64,000 nucleotides of DNA from an uncultured Candidatus Saccharibacteria bacterium (GTDB lineage Bacteria; Patescibacteriota; Minisyncoccia; Phycocordibacterales; CAIZLB01): contig CAYJDM010000001.1 in the NCBI GenBank assembly GCA_964368945.1, positions 42,474 to 106,473 on the forward strand. Reading direction: 5' to 3'. Below are positions 2,625 through 37,879 of the stretch, in pieces (the first letter of the stretch is position 1; every line of letters begins with the position of its first letter). The notes under the pieces are model-generated. The model saw nothing but the letters and a program-made list of their open reading frames with translations, ran no database searches and was not told the origin of the DNA. The position numbers were made by a program, and so were the translations under genes.

Positions 2625-3227
2625 TTACTCGCACTTTCCTTCAGCTGCATTCACTGTAACTGAGGCGAATCCTGCAGACTTGAAGAGAAGCTCTAGCTGC
2701 TTCTTTGCATTCTCGGTTGCCTGAGTCAGGATTCCGCCCGCGCATGCTGCTTTGCCTATGGCGTCCTCGGCTTCCTGTCGGGCATTTGCCTCGATATTGA
2801 GATCGCCCTTCGTGAGGAGTCCTTGTCGTCGATCGAATACTTGCGTTGCTTCATTGTCGAGGATGACTGAGAAAATCTGCGGAGCGGGGAGATTGATCGT
2901 GATCGCATTGCCCGTACCCTGGAAGTTTTCCGCCTTGAGCTGCGTAAAATCGAAGCCGGCGATTACGTCGCCATGCGCGACGAGGAGGATTTTATCCCCA
3001 AATAAAAACTGCCGGATCGCTCCATAATTCGTGCTCGCCTCGATGATTTTGTCGATGCTGAATTGCGCAGTCTCGAATCGTCCGAGCGCCGTGACCTGCG
3101 TGATGACGGCTGCGCGCTCCGTGCCGAATCTGAGGTCGGGTCTTTTGACCAGCCAGCCCTGCACCGTGAAGATCACGATCAAGGCGATGATAATTCCCAC
3201 AAGGATGTATATAAGTCTTTTTCGCAT
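2625..3227 (-). CDS. DUF4230 family membrane protein
   Basis: Start at MRKRLIYILVGIIIALIV, a single N-terminal TM and DUF4230-like architecture. The longer ORF reaching 3290 is an upstream extension that runs through the promoter region. Confidence 0.6.
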   Translation of the reverse strand: MRKRLIYILVGIIIALIVIFTVQGWLVKRPDLRFGTERAAVITQVTALGRFETAQFSIDKIIEASTNYGAIRQFLFGDKILLVAHGDVIAGFDFTQLKAENFQGTGNAITINLPAPQIFSVILDNEATQVFDRRQGLLTKGDLNIEANARQEAEDAIGKAACAGGILTQATENAKKQLELLFKSAGFASVTVNAAEGKCE

Positions 3228-3247
3228 AGACGTATTATACATTATGC

Positions 3248-3386
3248 AAGCTTTTTGATGCATCGCACAGCATTTGGTATTTTCAAACATGCATGAGGTC
3301 TTTTGATGCTACTAGCCCTAGCCCATAGTCCGAATCCATCTCACATAGTTGTGCGATGCATCAAAAAGCTCATGCATGTTTGAAAA
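3248..3386. promoter_or_regulatory. Divergent promoter region carrying interleaved inverted repeats and six ATGCAT sites. Segments are A (3248-3269), B (3280-3297), rc-A (3350-3370) and rc-B (3369-3386).
   Basis: aagctttttgatgcatcgcaca and ttttcaaacatgcatgag each have an exact reverse complement about 100 bp downstream, in the same order (A B A' B'). The set overlaps the -35/-10 region of the 3402 gene (TGaTATAAT at 3391-3399) and the upstream region of the DUF4230 gene. Confidence 0.45.
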
Positions 3387-3401
3387 GAAATGATATAATG
3401 C

Positions 3402-6400
3402 ATGCATATTATGCCAAGCCTCAAAGAGTACGTTCTTACCCTAAAAAAATACAATCCGAAGACAGAGGATCGGCTGCTCAAAATCTATCTCCTCAAAGCG
3501 GGCTGGCCTATTTCTGATATAGAAACGGCCTTTGCTGAATACAATGCCGGCCATACATCAGGAGCGCCCATGCCTTCTCAGGCTGCGTCTGTTGCAGTGC
3601 CTGCGCCGGTTGTCTCCGCAATTCCCGCAGCTACCGCGTCAAAAATACCGACTTCAACTGCTATAGAAGTTGCCGCTCCTGAAATCGAGCCTGCGCATAT
3701 AGCAAAACCGATGCAACCGACTCCGACTCCGACTCCGACTCCGCCTTCGGCTTCTTCTTCAAAGCTTCCGCCAATCACTGCCGGTATAAATAGGCAGCCG
3801 TCGCCAGCTTCACCATCTCAAATAGAAATCGCGCCGCGCGAAATTTCTCCCGTGACGAATGCGATTCCTGTCGTCGGTACGAGCGCTTCGATTCCTGCCG
3901 GTATTCCGACAACGATAGCGCCTGTCACAACGGCTGTGGACATAGAAGTCCAGAGCAATGAGCCGATGGGCGGATTTTTATCTCCTTTTCCAAATACGCA
4001 AAATGCGCCATTGCCAAAAGAGCCCGAAAACGCGCTTCCTATAATTGATGGCAGCATCGATCGGGATTCATATGGAAAAATAATAGTGCCCGGAGAAAAT
4101 GCGGCGGCGGACAGCGGCATTCTCCTCAAGACTCCTACGGTTGCATCGATCGAGATCCTGACCGCGCTCGCAGATGGCGATGCTGCGAAAGTCCCTGGCG
4201 ATCCCATGTATGTCATGCCGGATATAGAGCGAGATCTCGCAGCTCCGCATGCATCTGATGCTCAGAATGATTTTAAGGAAAAAATCTCAACAGCGCCTTC
4301 CGAACATATTTTGGTATCCACGACGGCGGAAAGAGAGGTGGTGGATCCTGCGAATATGGCAGGCACTGTCATCGATCAAGCTCGAAGGCAATTTGCCAGC
4401 GAGGATATGGCGGCCAATCAAAGCGCTGTCATGCCAGCTGTCGCAGGTTCTCCGTCTGCATCCGGAGCGCGGTCGGCAATGATGGCCTCTGATTCGCATT
4501 CGGCATTTGCCGGCGGCGGCCTTGCATCAAATCAATTCACATCATCTGCCGATGTTCTCAATGGCATGTCTGCTGCGGTGCCCGCATCGACCGCGCCCGC
4601 CGGAATGGATGGTGCTGGATTGGCAAGCGGCCCCATGATGGCCGATGCATCCATAATCGCGCAGGATCCCGGACCTCAGCCAATCGTTGCTCCTATAAAA
4701 AAGAAAAAAAGCCATTTGAAATTATTCCTCTGGCTCGCCCTCATTCTCGTCCTGGGCGCTTTGGGATATGGATATACGCGATTCGTCCATGGCGTATATC
4801 TTTTCGTGAACCCGCCGGTTGGCCGCGAAGAGGTTTTGACATATATGACGAATTCGGCCGCCGCGCTTGAGACGGCTGAATATACGACGCAATTCCATAT
4901 GAGGGTTGCGCCGCGAGAACCGGGATCCGAAAGCATTGATTTGAATTCGATCGGCCTTGATCCGACCCTTCTTGCGGGAGGCATTTCTACCATAAAGGGT
5001 TCTTCGACTGCGCCGTTGACCGCTACGACTGCCGTGGCCACGGACGAGTCTGCAGACGCCGGATCTGCCACGGATACAGAGGATTTCCTTGCGGCATTTC
5101 CGGCAGATGCAAATATCGATGTGACGGTTAAGAGTTTTTATCAAAAGAATCGCGATGCGAGCGGCAATGCTGAGATTAAGAGCGATAATGCATTCCATCA
5201 TCAGGGAACATATTCGGGCGAAGGCGTGACAGCGAAGTTCGATGTCGAATCCGTAATCAAGGGCGGCGTCACTTATGTCAAAGCGAATGAATTCCCGCAG
5301 ATGCTGCTGGATATAGAGCCGGTAAAGGGCAAATGGATTTCGATTCAGAAGAGCGATGAAGATCTGCTCAAGAATGTTTTTCCATGGCTTTCGCTTTTCT
5401 CTCCGCTTCCTTCCGTCATGCCTTCTGCTAATGCTTCTGCTTCCACGACCAATGCCTCAGGCACGCCGATCATGGCCGCAAGCATGGGCTCTCTCGGCGG
5501 CGTGACGAATCTGACCAAGGGCTTCATATCGCCTCGACCGGCAAATGCCGATAAGCAGATCGCCCGGCTCATTTCCATAGCGGATGATGAAAAAGTCCTG
5601 CAGGTCATCGGCGATCCTATAAAGAATATTCAATCTGGCTCTGCTTGGTATATGCCGAAGCGCGTGACATATGTATATAAGGTCAAGCCGGATCTGGCGC
5701 AGTTCCTTGTTTTCATCGATCGCGCGAATACTATCCTGCAGAATGAATTCGGCACTTCGTCGATCATGGCTCTGACAGATGCCCAGAAAGCCGAGATCAA
5801 TGGCCCTGCTTTTGCCAAATTCTTCGAATATATGACGAATAATGGCCGCTTTGCCATCGAGGTCGACAAGTATAAGGCATTGGTCGGTTTTGAGATCAGC
5901 ATCAATGTCGTCTCCGAAACGAAGAGGACAGAGATCGGCGCGCGAATTTCTTTGGATAAAATAAATGACCGCATCTCTATCGAAGCTCCGAAAGCCGATC
6001 TTGATTTCTCTGATGCGTATACGCAGATGACTGGCCAGACGAGGGAGGTGATGGTGCTCAGGAATACCGCGCATGTCGTCGAGGCGATCAGATCCGCTCT
6101 CGCTGAATATCAGGCCGCGCATGAAGGGGCATTGCCAGATGATCTGATGGCTCTGCTCGCTGATCCTGCGGGCATCAAGGCCTTTGCTGCCGAGCCTGGC
6201 CTGGATGATAAGAATCTGCTTTCCTTGTATCAGTATAAAAAAATGCCGGCCACTGGAAATGGCAGCGGAAGCAAACAGGGATATCAGCTCGTCTACCAAA
6301 TCGCTCTTCCCAAAGTGCCAGAGCAATTCTATGAACTGCATCAGAACCTGATCGGATATGATTCTGCCAGCGCGATCTCTGCGGGCAGCGAGCGAAGCCT

Positions 6401-34160: not shown

Positions 34161-36134
34161 TCAGAAATTTCTAACGATCGACAGCTCCCATTTGGCGCGA
34201 ATCACCTTGATTGCGAAAGCATTGAGGTGTTTTTGCAATATAGGCGTGAGGTTGTGACCGGATGGAATTGCGGATTTTGCCGCGAGAATATTCCTGAATA
34301 TTTCGCATTCTATTTCTGCCTGAGTGTGCAGGATGCGCATTGTGGTCGCTTTCGGATTCTTGGCTGATTCATCTGAGCTTTCATCCTTGGCATCGTCGGA
34401 AATTTGCCGCGCCAGATTGAAATGCTCAAAGAATGTGCGGATCGACATGACTTCGCTTTCCGATGCGCCAGCTTTGAGCATTGCAAGCATTGGGACGAGG
34501 GAAGTGCCTATGGATTTGCGAGCATGCATGCAGAGCGGCATTTGGCCTTCGCTTTTGGTCAGGAGGAGATATGAGATATCCGTGTCTATCAGGATGCTTT
34601 CGATTTCCGCAGGTATTTGGATATCGTGCTCTTCGATCCCGTCAATCAGTTTTTGCAGCTGGGCTTGGAATACGGTATTTGTGAGGAAGAGGATTGGCAG
34701 AGATTGCGGCAGGAGCTCCTGGTCGTAGATTTTGTCATATAGGAAATATGTGCAAAGCCCTAATGCATGCGTCAGCATGGCATCCTCGAGCCAGTCCTGA
34801 TCGCTTATGATTGCAGCGCATGATTCCAGAGAGATCGTGAAATCCGTCCCGGATAATAATCTTTCCACGATTTCCGTATGATCGCTGAGGACTTCGAATT
34901 CGGTCAGGGTGGTACGGATCGAATCGACGATTGAAATTTCAGGCGAGGAGTATGGACTGAGAATGGGCTCTGCCTGAGATGCAGATATGCCGATTCCATT
35001 GGCGGCATACTCAGCGTACTCTCTGAAGGAGATTGTCCCGATTGCGGTTTCGAACATGGCCAGAAATGATATGAGCCGGCTTGCAGCATATCTCGTCTTG
35101 CCATCTTTCATTGAGTGGATATACAGAGGATCTGCGTCTGGCTCTCGCAAGGGTATTTCATTGAGCACAGCTATTGTATCTTTGGCTAAGTTCGGCGGCG
35201 CCAGTCTCAATAGGCTGGCGGCATAGAAATAAAGGTCGGTATCGTTTTCGATTCTGATGCGATGGCTGACGGTTTCTTTTTTCTCCATAATCGTATTCAT
35301 GATAAAACTTGCCAGCTCTGACCTTTGCTCATTAGACCAGACGCATCTGGATATCATATATATGGCAACGGGCAGGGAATGATAGAAATCGGAAAACCAA
35401 AGCGACTCTATCGGATTGCGCAGAAATGCCATAAGCTTTTCGAATATATGGGATTTGGTCCGAAACATATGCGATGGGTCTACGGCATCGAAAAATGCCA
35501 CAACAGAAGACATTGCGACGATGTCAGCGGATTCCCATTCCGTATCGTCCTCAGCGCAGTCTGGCCGCTTTGCTTTGTCCGAGTCGGCGAACCATGTATT
35601 GAATAGATGCGGCGAATCCGGCTTGCGAGCCTCTTCTAGATTCTTGAGGCAATTTGCGAAAATCGAGCTTGGCGGCATTCGGTCTTTCCATGCATGGGTC
35701 GAAAGCGCATGCAAAGCGCTGAATGTGCTATCTATATCGGCTGGCAGGCATCCATCATTCTCGATTCCTTCCAGATTGGCATGAATCCAATCGAAGGCGT
35801 TTTCATCCAGTGAACGATTAAAGCCCACCGGGTGAAAATAATTGAGACGATCGCGGCTGTCTTTTGATCCAAATAATCTGATGGCAATACTGTCTGCGAA
35901 TCTGCGTATTTCAGATATCATATAGGGCATCCTATAATCGCTTTCCTTGAATGAAACCGCCGAATCTATATATACCAGAATGCGGGAAAGGGAAGTGAGG
36001 GCGACGCTGTCGATGAATGATATGGGAGGTTCGGCTGCCGTGCCCGCTTGTGCCAAGGCAAATAGCTTTTCGATGCAATCGAATATATCGAGTTTCTGGT
36101 ATGGATGAGCGCTTGCTGGGTTTTTCTTGGTCAC
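34161..36134 (-). CDS. large hypothetical alpha-helical protein (657 aa), no TM; Asp-rich motif LARQISDDAKDESSDE near the C-terminus
   Basis: Long ORF ending beside tRNA-Ser. No confident domain match. Confidence 0.55.
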   Translation of the reverse strand: MTKKNPASAHPYQKLDIFDCIEKLFALAQAGTAAEPPISFIDSVALTSLSRILVYIDSAVSFKESDYRMPYMISEIRRFADSIAIRLFGSKDSRDRLNYFHPVGFNRSLDENAFDWIHANLEGIENDGCLPADIDSTFSALHALSTHAWKDRMPPSSIFANCLKNLEEARKPDSPHLFNTWFADSDKAKRPDCAEDDTEWESADIVAMSSVVAFFDAVDPSHMFRTKSHIFEKLMAFLRNPIESLWFSDFYHSLPVAIYMISRCVWSNEQRSELASFIMNTIMEKKETVSHRIRIENDTDLYFYAASLLRLAPPNLAKDTIAVLNEIPLREPDADPLYIHSMKDGKTRYAASRLISFLAMFETAIGTISFREYAEYAANGIGISASQAEPILSPYSSPEISIVDSIRTTLTEFEVLSDHTEIVERLLSGTDFTISLESCAAIISDQDWLEDAMLTHALGLCTYFLYDKIYDQELLPQSLPILFLTNTVFQAQLQKLIDGIEEHDIQIPAEIESILIDTDISYLLLTKSEGQMPLCMHARKSIGTSLVPMLAMLKAGASESEVMSIRTFFEHFNLARQISDDAKDESSDESAKNPKATTMRILHTQAEIECEIFRNILAAKSAIPSGHNLTPILQKHLNAFAIKVIRAKWELSIVRNF

Positions 36135-36247: not shown

Positions 36248-36334
36248 GGAGAGATGGCAGAGCGGTCGAATGTACTACCTTGGAAAGGTAGCATGGGAGA
36301 AATCCCATCGGGGGTTCGAATCCCCCTCTCTCCG
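36248..36334 (+). tRNA. tRNA-Ser (anticodon GGA)
   Basis: Manual fold. Acceptor stem GGAGAGA/TCTCTCC, discriminator G, anticodon stem-loop CTACC-TTGGAAA-GGTAG, long variable arm and T-arm GGGGG-TTCGAAT-CCCCC. CCA is not encoded. Confidence 0.85.
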
Positions 36335-36341
36335 CTACATA

Positions 36342-36377
36342 ATCAAAACAGGCTGCACTGCTGCAGCCTGTTTTGAT
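36342..36377 (+). terminator. perfect 16-bp stem hairpin immediately downstream of tRNA-Ser
   Basis: atcaaaacaggctgca-ctgc-tgcagcctgttttgat. Confidence 0.4.
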
Positions 36378-36400
36378 TATGTCGAGGAAGAGGTTGATGA

Positions 36401-37165
36401 GAAAGGCGGAGCGGATGCCATCCCAGCAAGGATGGCCGCGAGCCGGGGTCGAGCAAATTTCTGAGCGACGGCGAAAATAAGAAGCAGGTTCTCGATGATA
36501 TAAGCCTGACCGTGAATCGCGGAGAAAAGATCGGGCTTGTGGGCCTCTCTGGCGCGGGCAAGTCCACGATATTCAAGCTTCTGCTCAAGGAGCGCGAGAA
36601 TTACGAAGGCGAGATCTATGTCGACGATGTTCCGCTCCGCACTATTAGCAAGCAGGATTATTTCACGCGCACGGCAATCGTCTTGCAGGATACGGAGGTA
36701 TTCAATTTCTCTTTGCGAGACAATGTGACGATTTCCAACTTCGATCATGCTGCGAATGCTGGCTTGCTCGACAAGGCGCTGACTGTCGCTCATGTGAATG
36801 AATTCGCTCGGGCATTGCCGCAAGGCATTGATACCAAGATCGGCGAGAAAGGCGTCAAATTATCCGGCGGCGAAAAGCAGCGCGTCGGCCTCGCTCGAGC
36901 CGTCTTCAAGGATCCGCAGCTTCTCTTGCTCGACGAAGCCACGTCTCATCTAGACGTCGAATCAGAGGAAAAAATCCAAGACTCGCTCCATCAATTCTTC
37001 CAGTCCGTAACCGCCATCGTGATCGCGCATCGCCTTTCGACGATCAAGGAGATGGATAAGATCGTCGTCCTCGAAGGGGGCAAGATCATAGAGCAGGGAA
37101 GCTTTGCCGCGCTCCAGAAGCAGAAGGGCCGATTCTCTGAATTATGGGCGAAGCTGAAGGTTTAG
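36401..37165 (+). pseudogene. 5'-truncated ABC exporter. Only the C-terminal ATPase domain is present and the transmembrane domain is absent.
   Basis: The frame opens at 36401, right after the tRNA hairpin, and reads FLSDGENKKQVLDDISLTVNRGEKIGLVGLSGAGKST (Walker A), LSGGEKQRV (signature) and LLLDEATSHLD (Walker B). There is no upstream TMD and no in-frame ATG before the GTG at 36512. Confidence 0.6.
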
Positions 37166-37197
37166 CACTGAAGGGTCTGATTTCGAGGCTTTGATTT

Positions 37198-37220
37198 GGA
37201 TATCGCAATTTGCGATATCC
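37198..37220. repeat. palindromic element copy 1: GGATATCGCAA-t-TTGCGATATCC (intergenic)
   Basis: Perfect 23-bp palindrome. Confidence 0.65.
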
Positions 37221-37309
37221 AATCTGATAACAGGAAGCGCCAAATCGGTGTTTCCAAATTTTCCAATTTGATCATTTCTTCATATGCTGTTTGCTAGAAT
37301 CTGGCGCAT

Positions 37310-37879
37310 ATGGAAAAAGAAATAATGCCTGAAGAGCCATTACATGCGGATCTCATAAAAGAGAAGATTTATATCATAAGGGGAAAGAAAGTCATGTTCG
37401 ATAAGGATTTGGCCATGCTGTATGGTGTGTCTACGGGCAGATTGAATGAGGCTGTCAAAAGAAACGTGAAGAGATTTCCTGAAGATTTCATGTTTCTGTT
37501 AAATAAGGCCGAATTAGAGCCGTTTTTAAGATCGCAATCTGCGATCTTAAAAAATACCGATAAGGGAGGTTTGATATCGCAAATTGCGATATCAAACCGA
37601 GGCGGTATTCGAAAGCCGTCTTTTGTATTCACCGAACAAGGCATCGCCATGCTCTCCAGTGTCCTGAATAGCGACAGGGCGATAGCCATGAATATCCAGA
37701 TCATCAGGATCTTCACGAAGCTCCGAGAGATGATCGATACGTACAAGGAACTTCGAGAAAAGGTAGAGGAGATGGAAAGGGAAAACGTTACGAATTTCAG
37801 GGAAATATTCAGGATCATCAGGCTGCTTATCAAGGAAGACGAAGGACCAAAGGGTCAGATGGGGTTTAGGGCAGATTGA
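37310..37879 (+). CDS. ORF6N-domain protein (KilA-N-like DNA-binding domain), carrying an in-frame palindromic insertion
   Basis: VMFDKDLAMLYGVSTGRLNEAVKRNVKRFPEDFMF...FVFTEQGIAMLSSVLNSDRAIAMNIQIIRIF matches the ORF6N pattern. Confidence 0.7.
   Translation: MEKEIMPEEPLHADLIKEKIYIIRGKKVMFDKDLAMLYGVSTGRLNEAVKRNVKRFPEDFMFLLNKAELEPFLRSQSAILKNTDKGGLISQIAISNRGGIRKPSFVFTEQGIAMLSSVLNSDRAIAMNIQIIRIFTKLREMIDTYKELREKVEEMERENVTNFREIFRIIRLLIKEDEGPKGQMGFRAD
37524..37552. repeat. palindromic element copy 2: TTTTAAGATCGCA-atc-TGCGATCTTAAAA (inside the ORF6N CDS)
   Basis: 29-bp palindrome. Confidence 0.6.
37568..37598. repeat. palindromic element copy 3: GGTTTGATATCGCAA-a-TTGCGATATCAAACC (inside the ORF6N CDS)
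   Basis: Perfect 31-bp palindrome sharing the GATATCGCAAnTTGCGATATC core with copy 1. Confidence 0.65.

Follow-up and report, generated by a model that had tools for sequence, protein, structure and literature searches.

Palindromic DNA elements as an integral part of ORF6N genes and candidate target sites of the gene product

Why should a small gene for a predicted DNA-binding protein carry long palindromes in frame within its own coding sequence, and another just upstream of it? The question is raised by the gene for a 189-residue ORF6N-domain protein (37310-37879, + strand) on contig CAYJDM010000001.1 of an uncultured Candidatus Saccharibacteria bacterium, within the whole 64-kb stretch of DNA that was analysed, hereafter the window. 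The original prediction took the palindromes for sequence inserted in frame into a normal ORF6N gene, in the manner of the Rickettsia palindromic elements (RPEs), and added that they may be sites for the ORF6N protein itself. Comparison across the gene family shows that the palindromes are a conserved class of DNA element and an integral part of ORF6N genes, and that selection acts on the self-complementarity of the DNA, not on protein or RNA. They are also candidate target sites of the gene's own product, with an autoregulatory or centromere-like role and possibly acting as extruded hairpins, a reading given roughly an even chance here (about 0.5).

Of the three palindromes of the window, two lie inside the ORF6N gene and one upstream of it. 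The intergenic palindrome (37196-37222), TTGGATATCGCAA-T-TTGCGATATCCAA, is 27 bp long, with 13-nt arms and a 1-nt centre that lies 101 nt 5' of the ORF6N ATG. The first in-frame palindrome (37523-37553) has 14-nt arms around the 3-nt loop ATC, 31 bp in all, and occupies codons 72-82, which encode FLRSQSAILKN; the second (37568-37598), also of 31 bp, has 15-nt arms and a 1-nt centre and occupies codons 87-97, encoding GLISQIAISNR. The number and placement of the three thus stand as first described, and their sizes, given then as 23, 29 and 31 bp, are corrected to 27, 31 and 31 bp. The 21-mer core GATATCGCAANTTGCGATATC occurs twice in the window against an expectation of 0.01, and two occurrences were obtained in none of 100 shuffles. 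As folded DNA, the three hairpins have energies of -12.2, -13.4 and -15.2 kcal/mol (z-scores -6.9 to -9.7). No further palindrome of the ORF6N type is present in the remaining 63 kb. No intrinsic terminator was called on any of the three, whose stems are not followed by T-runs, and a terminator role was rejected for this lack of T-tracts; Rfam returned no family at the palindromes, only one noise match at E = 5.3. On the opposite strand, an open reading frame of 154 residues (37369-37833, - strand), probably spurious, spans the ORF6N gene, and in it the palindromes are translated as DIAICDI and IADCDL, the same peptide family thus being obtained from the palindrome on both strands. Independent short-read assemblies of the same organism stop inside the ORF6N gene, at 37452 (L164) and 37562 (L163), and one of these two breaks falls between the in-gene palindromes, which may fragment short-read assemblies.

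The same element recurs throughout the family. For the comparison, 80 genomic and 80 viral loci (160) were fetched by peptide patterns lying outside the loop, and more than 7,900 relatives were scored. In an alignment of 38 relatives, the conserved halves of the domain are separated by a stretch that varies in length, a loop bounded by RFPxDF and FTEQG in which the motif (L/W)(R/K/I)(S/C/Y)Q(I/F/N)(A/V/G)(T/I)(S/L) is present in 1-4 copies. At the DNA level, each of these copies corresponds to a perfect palindrome whose centre is the first base of the codon following Q or H, with arms of 6-19 nt and the apex CA(A)N(T)TG; a gene has 1-4 copies, and the element as a whole is a perfect inverted repeat of 27-39 bp. 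At least one in-gene palindrome is present in 84 of 94 genomic ORF6N genes and in 66 of 87 viral ones, and 108 of 120 distinct loops score at least 8. The position of the first in-frame palindrome of the window is homologous to a palindrome in those proportions as well (108/120 distinct ORF6N loops), and many homologous loci carry upstream palindromes equivalent to the one at 37196-37222. In nearly all genes the in-gene centres lie 195-285 nt from the start, with 106 of 107 in phase 0. The element is spread over more than 20 bacterial phyla, as well as phages and plasmids; its hosts include Patescibacteria, Planctomycetota, Bacteroidota, Omnitrophota, Margulisiibacteriota, Acidobacteriota, Actinomycetes, Verrucomicrobiota, Nitrospirota and Spirochaetota, and it is also found in Campylobacterota and in plasmids of Segatella. 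For cultured phages, only five gut-phage records matched, all of them without annotation. Two Segatella copri plasmids, L285 (NZ_CP152354.1, 2955 bp) and L286 (NZ_CP152486.1, 4140 bp), have only Rep and ORF6N annotated, and their ORF6N genes keep the in-gene palindrome with an altered apex (GTGGTCGAAAtTTTCGACCAC and GAGGTTATCAAAAaATTTGATAACCTC), an arrangement that hints at a plasmid maintenance or regulatory role. A Legionella oakridgensis plasmid (L287, gene 2989-3885) encodes a 298-residue ORF6N protein beside a site-specific integrase and has no in-gene palindrome of at least 9 pairs, from which it appears that some lineages lost the palindrome. Literature searches on ORF6N, and on KilA-N together with palindromes, found no relevant description.

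That selection acts on the self-complementarity of the DNA is established by synonymous permutation, by covariation, by copies in a shifted frame and in non-coding DNA, by the rarity of G·T pairs and by the disorder of the encoded loop. When synonymous codons were permuted, the observed arm length was never reached in 71 of 156 genes, and the arm of 15 in the window gene compares with a permutation maximum of 8. Covariation was measured on 110 distinct palindromes with 500 shuffles; both-sided changes were found at 12 of the 14 stem pairs, there were 356 compensated cells against 114 in the shuffles, and the covariation score of 0.573 (0.178 in shuffles) was reached by none of the 500, the slid controls staying at or below 0.117. 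The sequences had been selected for pairing at 7 or more of the 9 inner positions, which makes the proportion of paired cells partly circular, whereas the diversity of pair types is not. At the amino-acid level, S covaries with A or V, C/F/Y with G, K with T, and I with I, which is exactly what the layout c1 c2 CAA N TTG rc(c2) rc(c1) predicts. In three independent loci (L033, L040 and L077) the palindrome is read in frame +1, as VAICDR, VITNCDS and VVTNCDN, and the non-coding copies are as perfect as the coding ones. Six copies with a period of 51-53 bp lie 3' of the ORF6N stop codon of locus L005 (5640-5930), between the convergent ORF6N and topA genes, each with a different stem and each still self-complementary except for one G·T pair in the last copy. 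[quoted passage not shown]

Cells with G·T (G·U-type) pairs make up about 2% and are no commoner than A·C intermediates. The raw counts of G:T and A:C are skewed by redundant gut-phage sequences and by coding constraint (K/R and T codons) on stem positions 7-8; once duplicates are taken out there is no asymmetry, a result taken only to mean that G·U is not tolerated. The rarity of G·T speaks for a constraint to Watson-Crick pairs in DNA and against an RNA stem. The encoded segment is disordered in the AlphaFold2 model of the window protein, where residues 74-100, a loop between the helix at 66-77 and the strand at 105-108, have a predicted local distance difference test (pLDDT) score below 50. 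The signature peptide of the family, (L/W)(R/K/I)(S/C/F/Y)Q(I/F/N)(A/V/G)(T/I)S, is therefore mostly a by-product of translating a DNA element.

The palindromes keep close to the gene. Of the extragenic palindromes with this apex and arms of at least 9 nt that were found within 5 kb on either side of ORF6N genes, 29 of 30 lie within 450 bp of the gene. Upstream copies, present in at least 19 loci, stand mostly 42-134 nt before the ATG and directly 5' of a promoter-like block, and further copies lie directly downstream of ORF6N genes. A metagenome scan with the core from the window gave 80 occurrences: 62 fall within ORF6N genes, and another 6 are no more than 500 bp from one. The expectation of dispersed copies in unrelated genes was thus not borne out by the copy search, which found three in the 64-kb window, all at ORF6N, and 68 of the 80 metagenomic occurrences tied to ORF6N. 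There is no conserved partner gene, no neighbour family being present in more than 4 of the 80 loci. The DNA that the window has in common with an 81%-identical homologue (L161) is confined to the interval between 45 nt 5' of the ATG and the stop codon; this homologue sits in a different context, between unrelated genes that include ruvX, and has one in-gene palindrome and a degenerate copy overlapping its stop codon. Judged from the sequence limits of this homology, from the lack of a recurrent neighbour and from the Segatella plasmids with Rep and ORF6N, the ORF6N gene appears to be a self-contained moving unit.

Two further arrangements were seen around the family. Solo copies of TTTGATATCGCAAATTGCGATATCAAA occur without a detectable ORF6N on GC-rich metagenome contigs (L225 1430-1476, L177 4770, L193 346, L184, L208 and L240); the flanks of the copy in L225 lengthen the palindrome to about 47 bp, those in L177 and L193 lie just 5' of XRE-like and HicB-like antitoxin open reading frames, and L184, L208 and L240 are one locus in related organisms. 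In L027 (4447-4902), three identical copies of TTTGAGGTCGCAATTTGCGACCTCAAA with a period of about 163 bp lie upstream of a Chitinophagaceae ORF6N gene, a fourth palindrome is at the start of the ORF6N gene and a fifth is downstream.

The protein encoded by the window gene matches PF10543 with 104.6 bits against a cut-off of 27.8, residues 18-118 aligning to the complete profile (1-86 of 86). It is predicted to have an N-terminal winged-helix-like DNA-binding domain and a C-terminal coiled coil, and in this respect the model resembles MerR, RacA and pSK1 Par; the long C-terminal helices of the AlphaFold2 model (residues 122-175) suggest a coiled-coil dimer. ORF6N relatives carry the PHROGs label anti-repressor. 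Pfam, PHROGs and fold searches gave only ORF6N, anti-repressor and winged-helix matches, with no HUH/Y1 transposase signature. Upstream of the gene, a conserved 5' block (37265-37309, + strand) travels with it, being part of the DNA shared with L161, and contains ATTTCTTCAT (37274-37283) and the extended -10-like element TGcTAGAAT (37292-37300). Being common to the window and L161, this block is probably the promoter. Other ORF6N genes of Patescibacteria likewise have a ATTTCTTTAT-like motif and, after it, a -10-like element in their upstream DNA. The motif ATTTCTT(T/C)AT, sometimes duplicated, is found about 30-60 nt 5' of the ATG in L001, L003, L005, L007, L009, L161 and the window, placed between the upstream palindrome and the -10-like element. 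The right arm of the palindrome, TTGYGA, was considered as a -35 hexamer and rejected, there being no correctly spaced -10 in the window. No Shine-Dalgarno sequence precedes the ORF6N ATG, which suggests that the mRNA may be leaderless.

What, then, might the palindromes do? The ORF6N product is the sole component consistently linked to them, and on this ground the earlier suggestion that they are sites for the ORF6N protein gives the best functional model, with binding as its prediction. Sites with dyad symmetry do stand beside the probable promoter of the gene itself, as expected of an operator or a centromere. The palindrome is embedded in frame in the DNA that encodes the disordered loop, in the wing region of the predicted winged-helix domain. 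In the proposed mechanism, a dimer of winged helix and coiled coil, of the same build as MerR, RacA and pSK1 Par, would bind the palindromes, either as duplexes with two-fold symmetry or after their extrusion as hairpins (cruciforms). Autoregulation could follow from the upstream copy acting as operator and the intragenic sites as a roadblock or loop, and the bound sites might also nucleate a centromere-like or silencing complex, similar to those of Par or RacA, on the small mobile unit carrying the gene.

Several observations weigh against self-targeting. Twelve of the 80 metagenomic occurrences have no detectable ORF6N nearby; some of these are at contig ends or in ORF6N remnants, and others are solo in GC-rich DNA. 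The upstream palindrome of the window lies outside the block common to L161, and a scan for consensus sigma-70 promoters upstream of the ORF6N gene was empty. Distant members alter even the apex, as in TCGAAAtTTTCGA of L285. Copies at the same locus differ at stem positions and yet stay symmetric (for example GGTCGCAA, ATATCGCAA and AAGTCACAA), and the symmetry is perfect out to 13-19 nt. Recognition of specific bases in a duplex by a dimer needs neither the symmetric variation of stems nor symmetry over 13-19 nt, which points to hairpin formation or to symmetrising by template switching. A symmetrising mutational process of this kind could work without any protein, and regulation alone does not account for the intragenic position. 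What is selected thus looks like intrastrand pairing (hairpin or cruciform); alternatively, template switching homogenises the arms. A wider proposal, put forward tentatively and held to be somewhat less probable than even, is that ORF6N is a self-referential unit of gene and site. A hairpin- or cruciform-forming palindrome would have been kept in the coding sequence since before many phyla diverged, dictating the Pfam motif and serving as target of the gene's own product or of the machinery that propagates it; this would be a previously unrecognised class of gene-embedded element on a single-gene module for mobility, partition or defence.

The insertion of an independent, selfish RPE-like element into the ORF6N gene, from which the analysis started, is now largely refuted and is the least probable of the explanations considered. 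RPEs are 100-150 bp long and are scattered through a single genome, both between genes and inside many unrelated ones. Like them, the ORF6N palindromes are translated in frame into a tolerated, disordered segment (106 of 107 in phase 0; loop pLDDT below 50), copy number differs between close relatives, and a minority of copies are solo elsewhere. In contrast to RPEs, however, the ORF6N element is 27-39 bp long and belongs to one gene family and one codon position across phyla, and many dispersed copies in the same genome were found neither in the 64-kb window, whose other 63 kb lack it, nor among the 80 metagenomic occurrences, of which about 85% are tied to ORF6N. The supposedly usual LRSQ...S motif of the family is itself the translation of a palindrome, which is at the same position in about 90% of genes and underlies the family signature. 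The extra residues noted in the window protein, which spends 101 residues on the 86-position PF10543 profile, are indeed encoded by a palindrome, as an additional unit; what falls away is their insertion into a palindrome-free ancestor. The closest relative (P0002, 81% identical) has one palindrome copy, and thus one unit fewer than the window protein. The second in-gene copy of the window, the additional one with respect to this nearest homologue, replaces a non-homologous stretch of the relative, and on that basis the extra residues are read as an additional palindrome unit. Alternatively, the palindromes could be hairpin-based sites of recombination or mobility, at which host or helper machinery or template switching would move, duplicate and reshuffle the ORF6N unit and its N- and C-terminal halves, as with REP/RAYT, attC sites or the ends of IS200/IS605. 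The stems conserve structure with Watson-Crick pairs only and have a conserved apex, palindromes lie on either flank of the gene, near relatives sit in unrelated contexts with sharp limits of homology and no conserved neighbour, and there are tandem arrays, variation in copy number and solo copies in GC-rich genomes. Across 112 proteins, the identity correlation between the N- and C-terminal halves (rho 0.07) is lower than that within the halves (0.18 and 0.31), a comparison that rests on short, noisy and nearly saturated segments. Yet the gene is not linked to any recombinase or HUH nuclease, the block shared by the window and L161 does not end at palindromes, the palindromes are not dispersed in the genome, and their 1-3-nt central spacer is unlike the core sites of tyrosine recombinases. 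A role in mobility is considered unlikely.

Hairpins in the ORF6N transcript, affecting mRNA stability, processing by RNase III, or pausing of the ribosome or RNA polymerase, are a still less probable explanation. Their very stable folding and the presence of both coding and 3' copies, as in the L005 array, which recalls REP-like 3' stabilisers, would fit; but with G·U-type pairs at about 2% of cells and no better tolerated than A·C, with many copies 5' of the likely promoter and so outside the transcript, with no T-tracts and with no match to an Rfam family, the pairing is poorly explained by RNA. It is also very unlikely that the palindromes have no function at all and are merely quasi-palindromes tolerated in a disordered loop, kept perfect by intrastrand template-switch correction, with duplicates spilling into the flanks. 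Such a process would explain why the symmetry of the arms exceeds any plausible protein footprint, why Watson-Crick pairs alone are retained and why the loop accepts 1-4 copies. It would not lead one to expect that palindromes, which are prone to deletion, are kept across more than 20 phyla, in different reading frames and on tiny plasmids, and a conserved apex and clustering near promoters are unexpected without selection.

If the palindromes are target sites of the ORF6N product, known systems offer partial parallels. Sites that act in cis inside the gene of their own binder are known from lambda O, with the ori iterons in the region coding for its linker, from parS in spo0J/parB, and from pac in terS. 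There, as in ORF6N, tandem dyad sites lie in the DNA for a flexible segment of a DNA-binding protein, and the amino acids are passengers. These are, however, other protein families; the iterons are near-identical, whereas each ORF6N copy has its own self-complementary stem, and no part in replication or packaging is apparent for ORF6N. The Par protein of pSK1 with its centromere repeats (PDB 8csh) and RacA with its ram sites likewise have repeated sites beside their own gene, and the likeness extends to small plasmids, given the Segatella plasmids with Rep and ORF6N only. In contrast to these systems, the ORF6N sites are long, perfect palindromes that are also intragenic, and their stems covary instead of being identical in sequence. 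No sequence homology of the ORF6N protein to pSK1 Par or RacA is detectable, and ORF6N binding of the sites is predicted. Together, lambda O, parS and pac on the one hand and pSK1 Par on the other are the closest analogues in logic, and none combines a fixed codon position across phyla, covarying stems and survival in different frames. The repetitive extragenic palindromic (REP) sequences with their RAYT genes (REPtrons) also have palindromes of about 30-35 nt that flank a specific gene, form arrays and conserve the structure of the stem; ORF6N, in contrast, is not an HUH/Y1 nuclease, has few local copies as against hundreds per genome, and has copies within the gene as well. Finally, the window protein matches the PADLOC model PDLC04856 of the candidate defence system PDC-S05 (E = 4.8e-51, positions 4-165 of 177). 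One PDC-S05 representative reduced the plating of T7 and T5 about 1000-fold in E. coli (10.1101/2024.09.26.614923), where it is given as carrying a RhuM domain. Its activity may therefore not hold for the ORF6N subfamily, for which defence is only a candidate function, and the system is not known to involve the palindromes.

The DNA preceding the ORF6N gene has a separate explanation. Upstream of the intergenic palindrome lies an ATP-binding cassette (ABC) gene (36455-37165, + strand), identified by Pfam, NCBIfam and tblastn as a 5'-truncated remnant of an MsbA/HepA-type fused exporter that keeps only the nucleotide-binding domain. Stop codons at 36395-36400 precede its frame, which runs from 36401 to the stop codon ending at 37165; the first in-frame start, a GTG at 36512, is inside the nucleotide-binding domain. 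The translation has the Walker A motif GLSGAGKST, the signature LSGGEKQR and the Walker B motif LLLLDEATSHLD. Pfam matches ABC_tran alone (PF00005, E = 2.6e-30), and in NCBIfam the fragment covers about residues 344-572 of the 572-610-residue models of fused permease and ATPase (MsbA, HepA), scoring 233-241 bits against cut-offs of 602-780. The closest relatives, at most 78% identical, extend N-terminally into the transmembrane domain PF00664, and with such relatives as tblastn queries the similarity begins at 36455-36491 and the 64-kb window yields no trace of a transmembrane part; of a fused exporter, the N-terminal PF00664 domain and a complete frame with start codon are thus lacking. The matches to the nucleotide-binding domain only, the relatives with transmembrane domain and the tblastn start agree that the gene is truncated at its 5' end, as the original prediction had it, with no transmembrane domain and no proper start. 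An intact ABC gene in a syntenic relative was not found, the closest ORF6N homologue having other surroundings. An assembly error was set aside, the junction having been recovered base for base in two independent Logan assemblies and so not being an artefact of a single assembly.

Upstream of the remnant is a tRNA-Ser with anticodon GGA (36248-36335, + strand; ARAGORN; Rfam tRNA, 56.8 bits), whose 3' end is overlapped by a large hairpin (36331-36388) with 27-nt arms that are 93% complementary, a 4-nt loop and no T-tract. This hairpin is unusually long and covers the last bases of the tRNA; it was not called in the terminator scan, and Rfam gave only noise matches to microRNA precursors. On the other side, the tRNA adjoins a 657-residue open reading frame (34161-36134, - strand) with no match in Pfam, NCBIfam or PADLOC. 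The proposal of a tRNA-linked insertion junction found no support. A second copy of the tRNA 3' end was not found in the 64 kb with up to 3 mismatches allowed, neither an integrase gene nor a direct repeat at a far boundary marks an island, and housekeeping genes lie on both sides (by Pfam, msrAB, a lyase, murD, murC, a NUDIX gene and another Mur ligase). Plain gene decay suffices for the ABC fragment, an ordinary pseudogene truncated at its 5' end and unrelated to the palindromes, and this part of the locus, with its tRNA, amounts to nothing more than that.

For the ORF6N family, the palindromes represent a clear, family-wide case in which a conserved "protein motif" is a DNA element. The family is very abundant, particularly so in Patescibacteria, has no assigned function and figures as PDC-S05 among candidate anti-phage systems. 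Domain alignments, dN/dS (the ratio of nonsynonymous to synonymous substitution rates) and conservation scores in the ORF6N loop accordingly reflect selection at the level of DNA, and the breaking of short-read assemblies at ORF6N palindromes is of relevance for annotation. The element also provides a testable handle on function, since synonymous recoding separates the protein from the palindrome, and binding to the duplex can be compared with binding to the hairpin.

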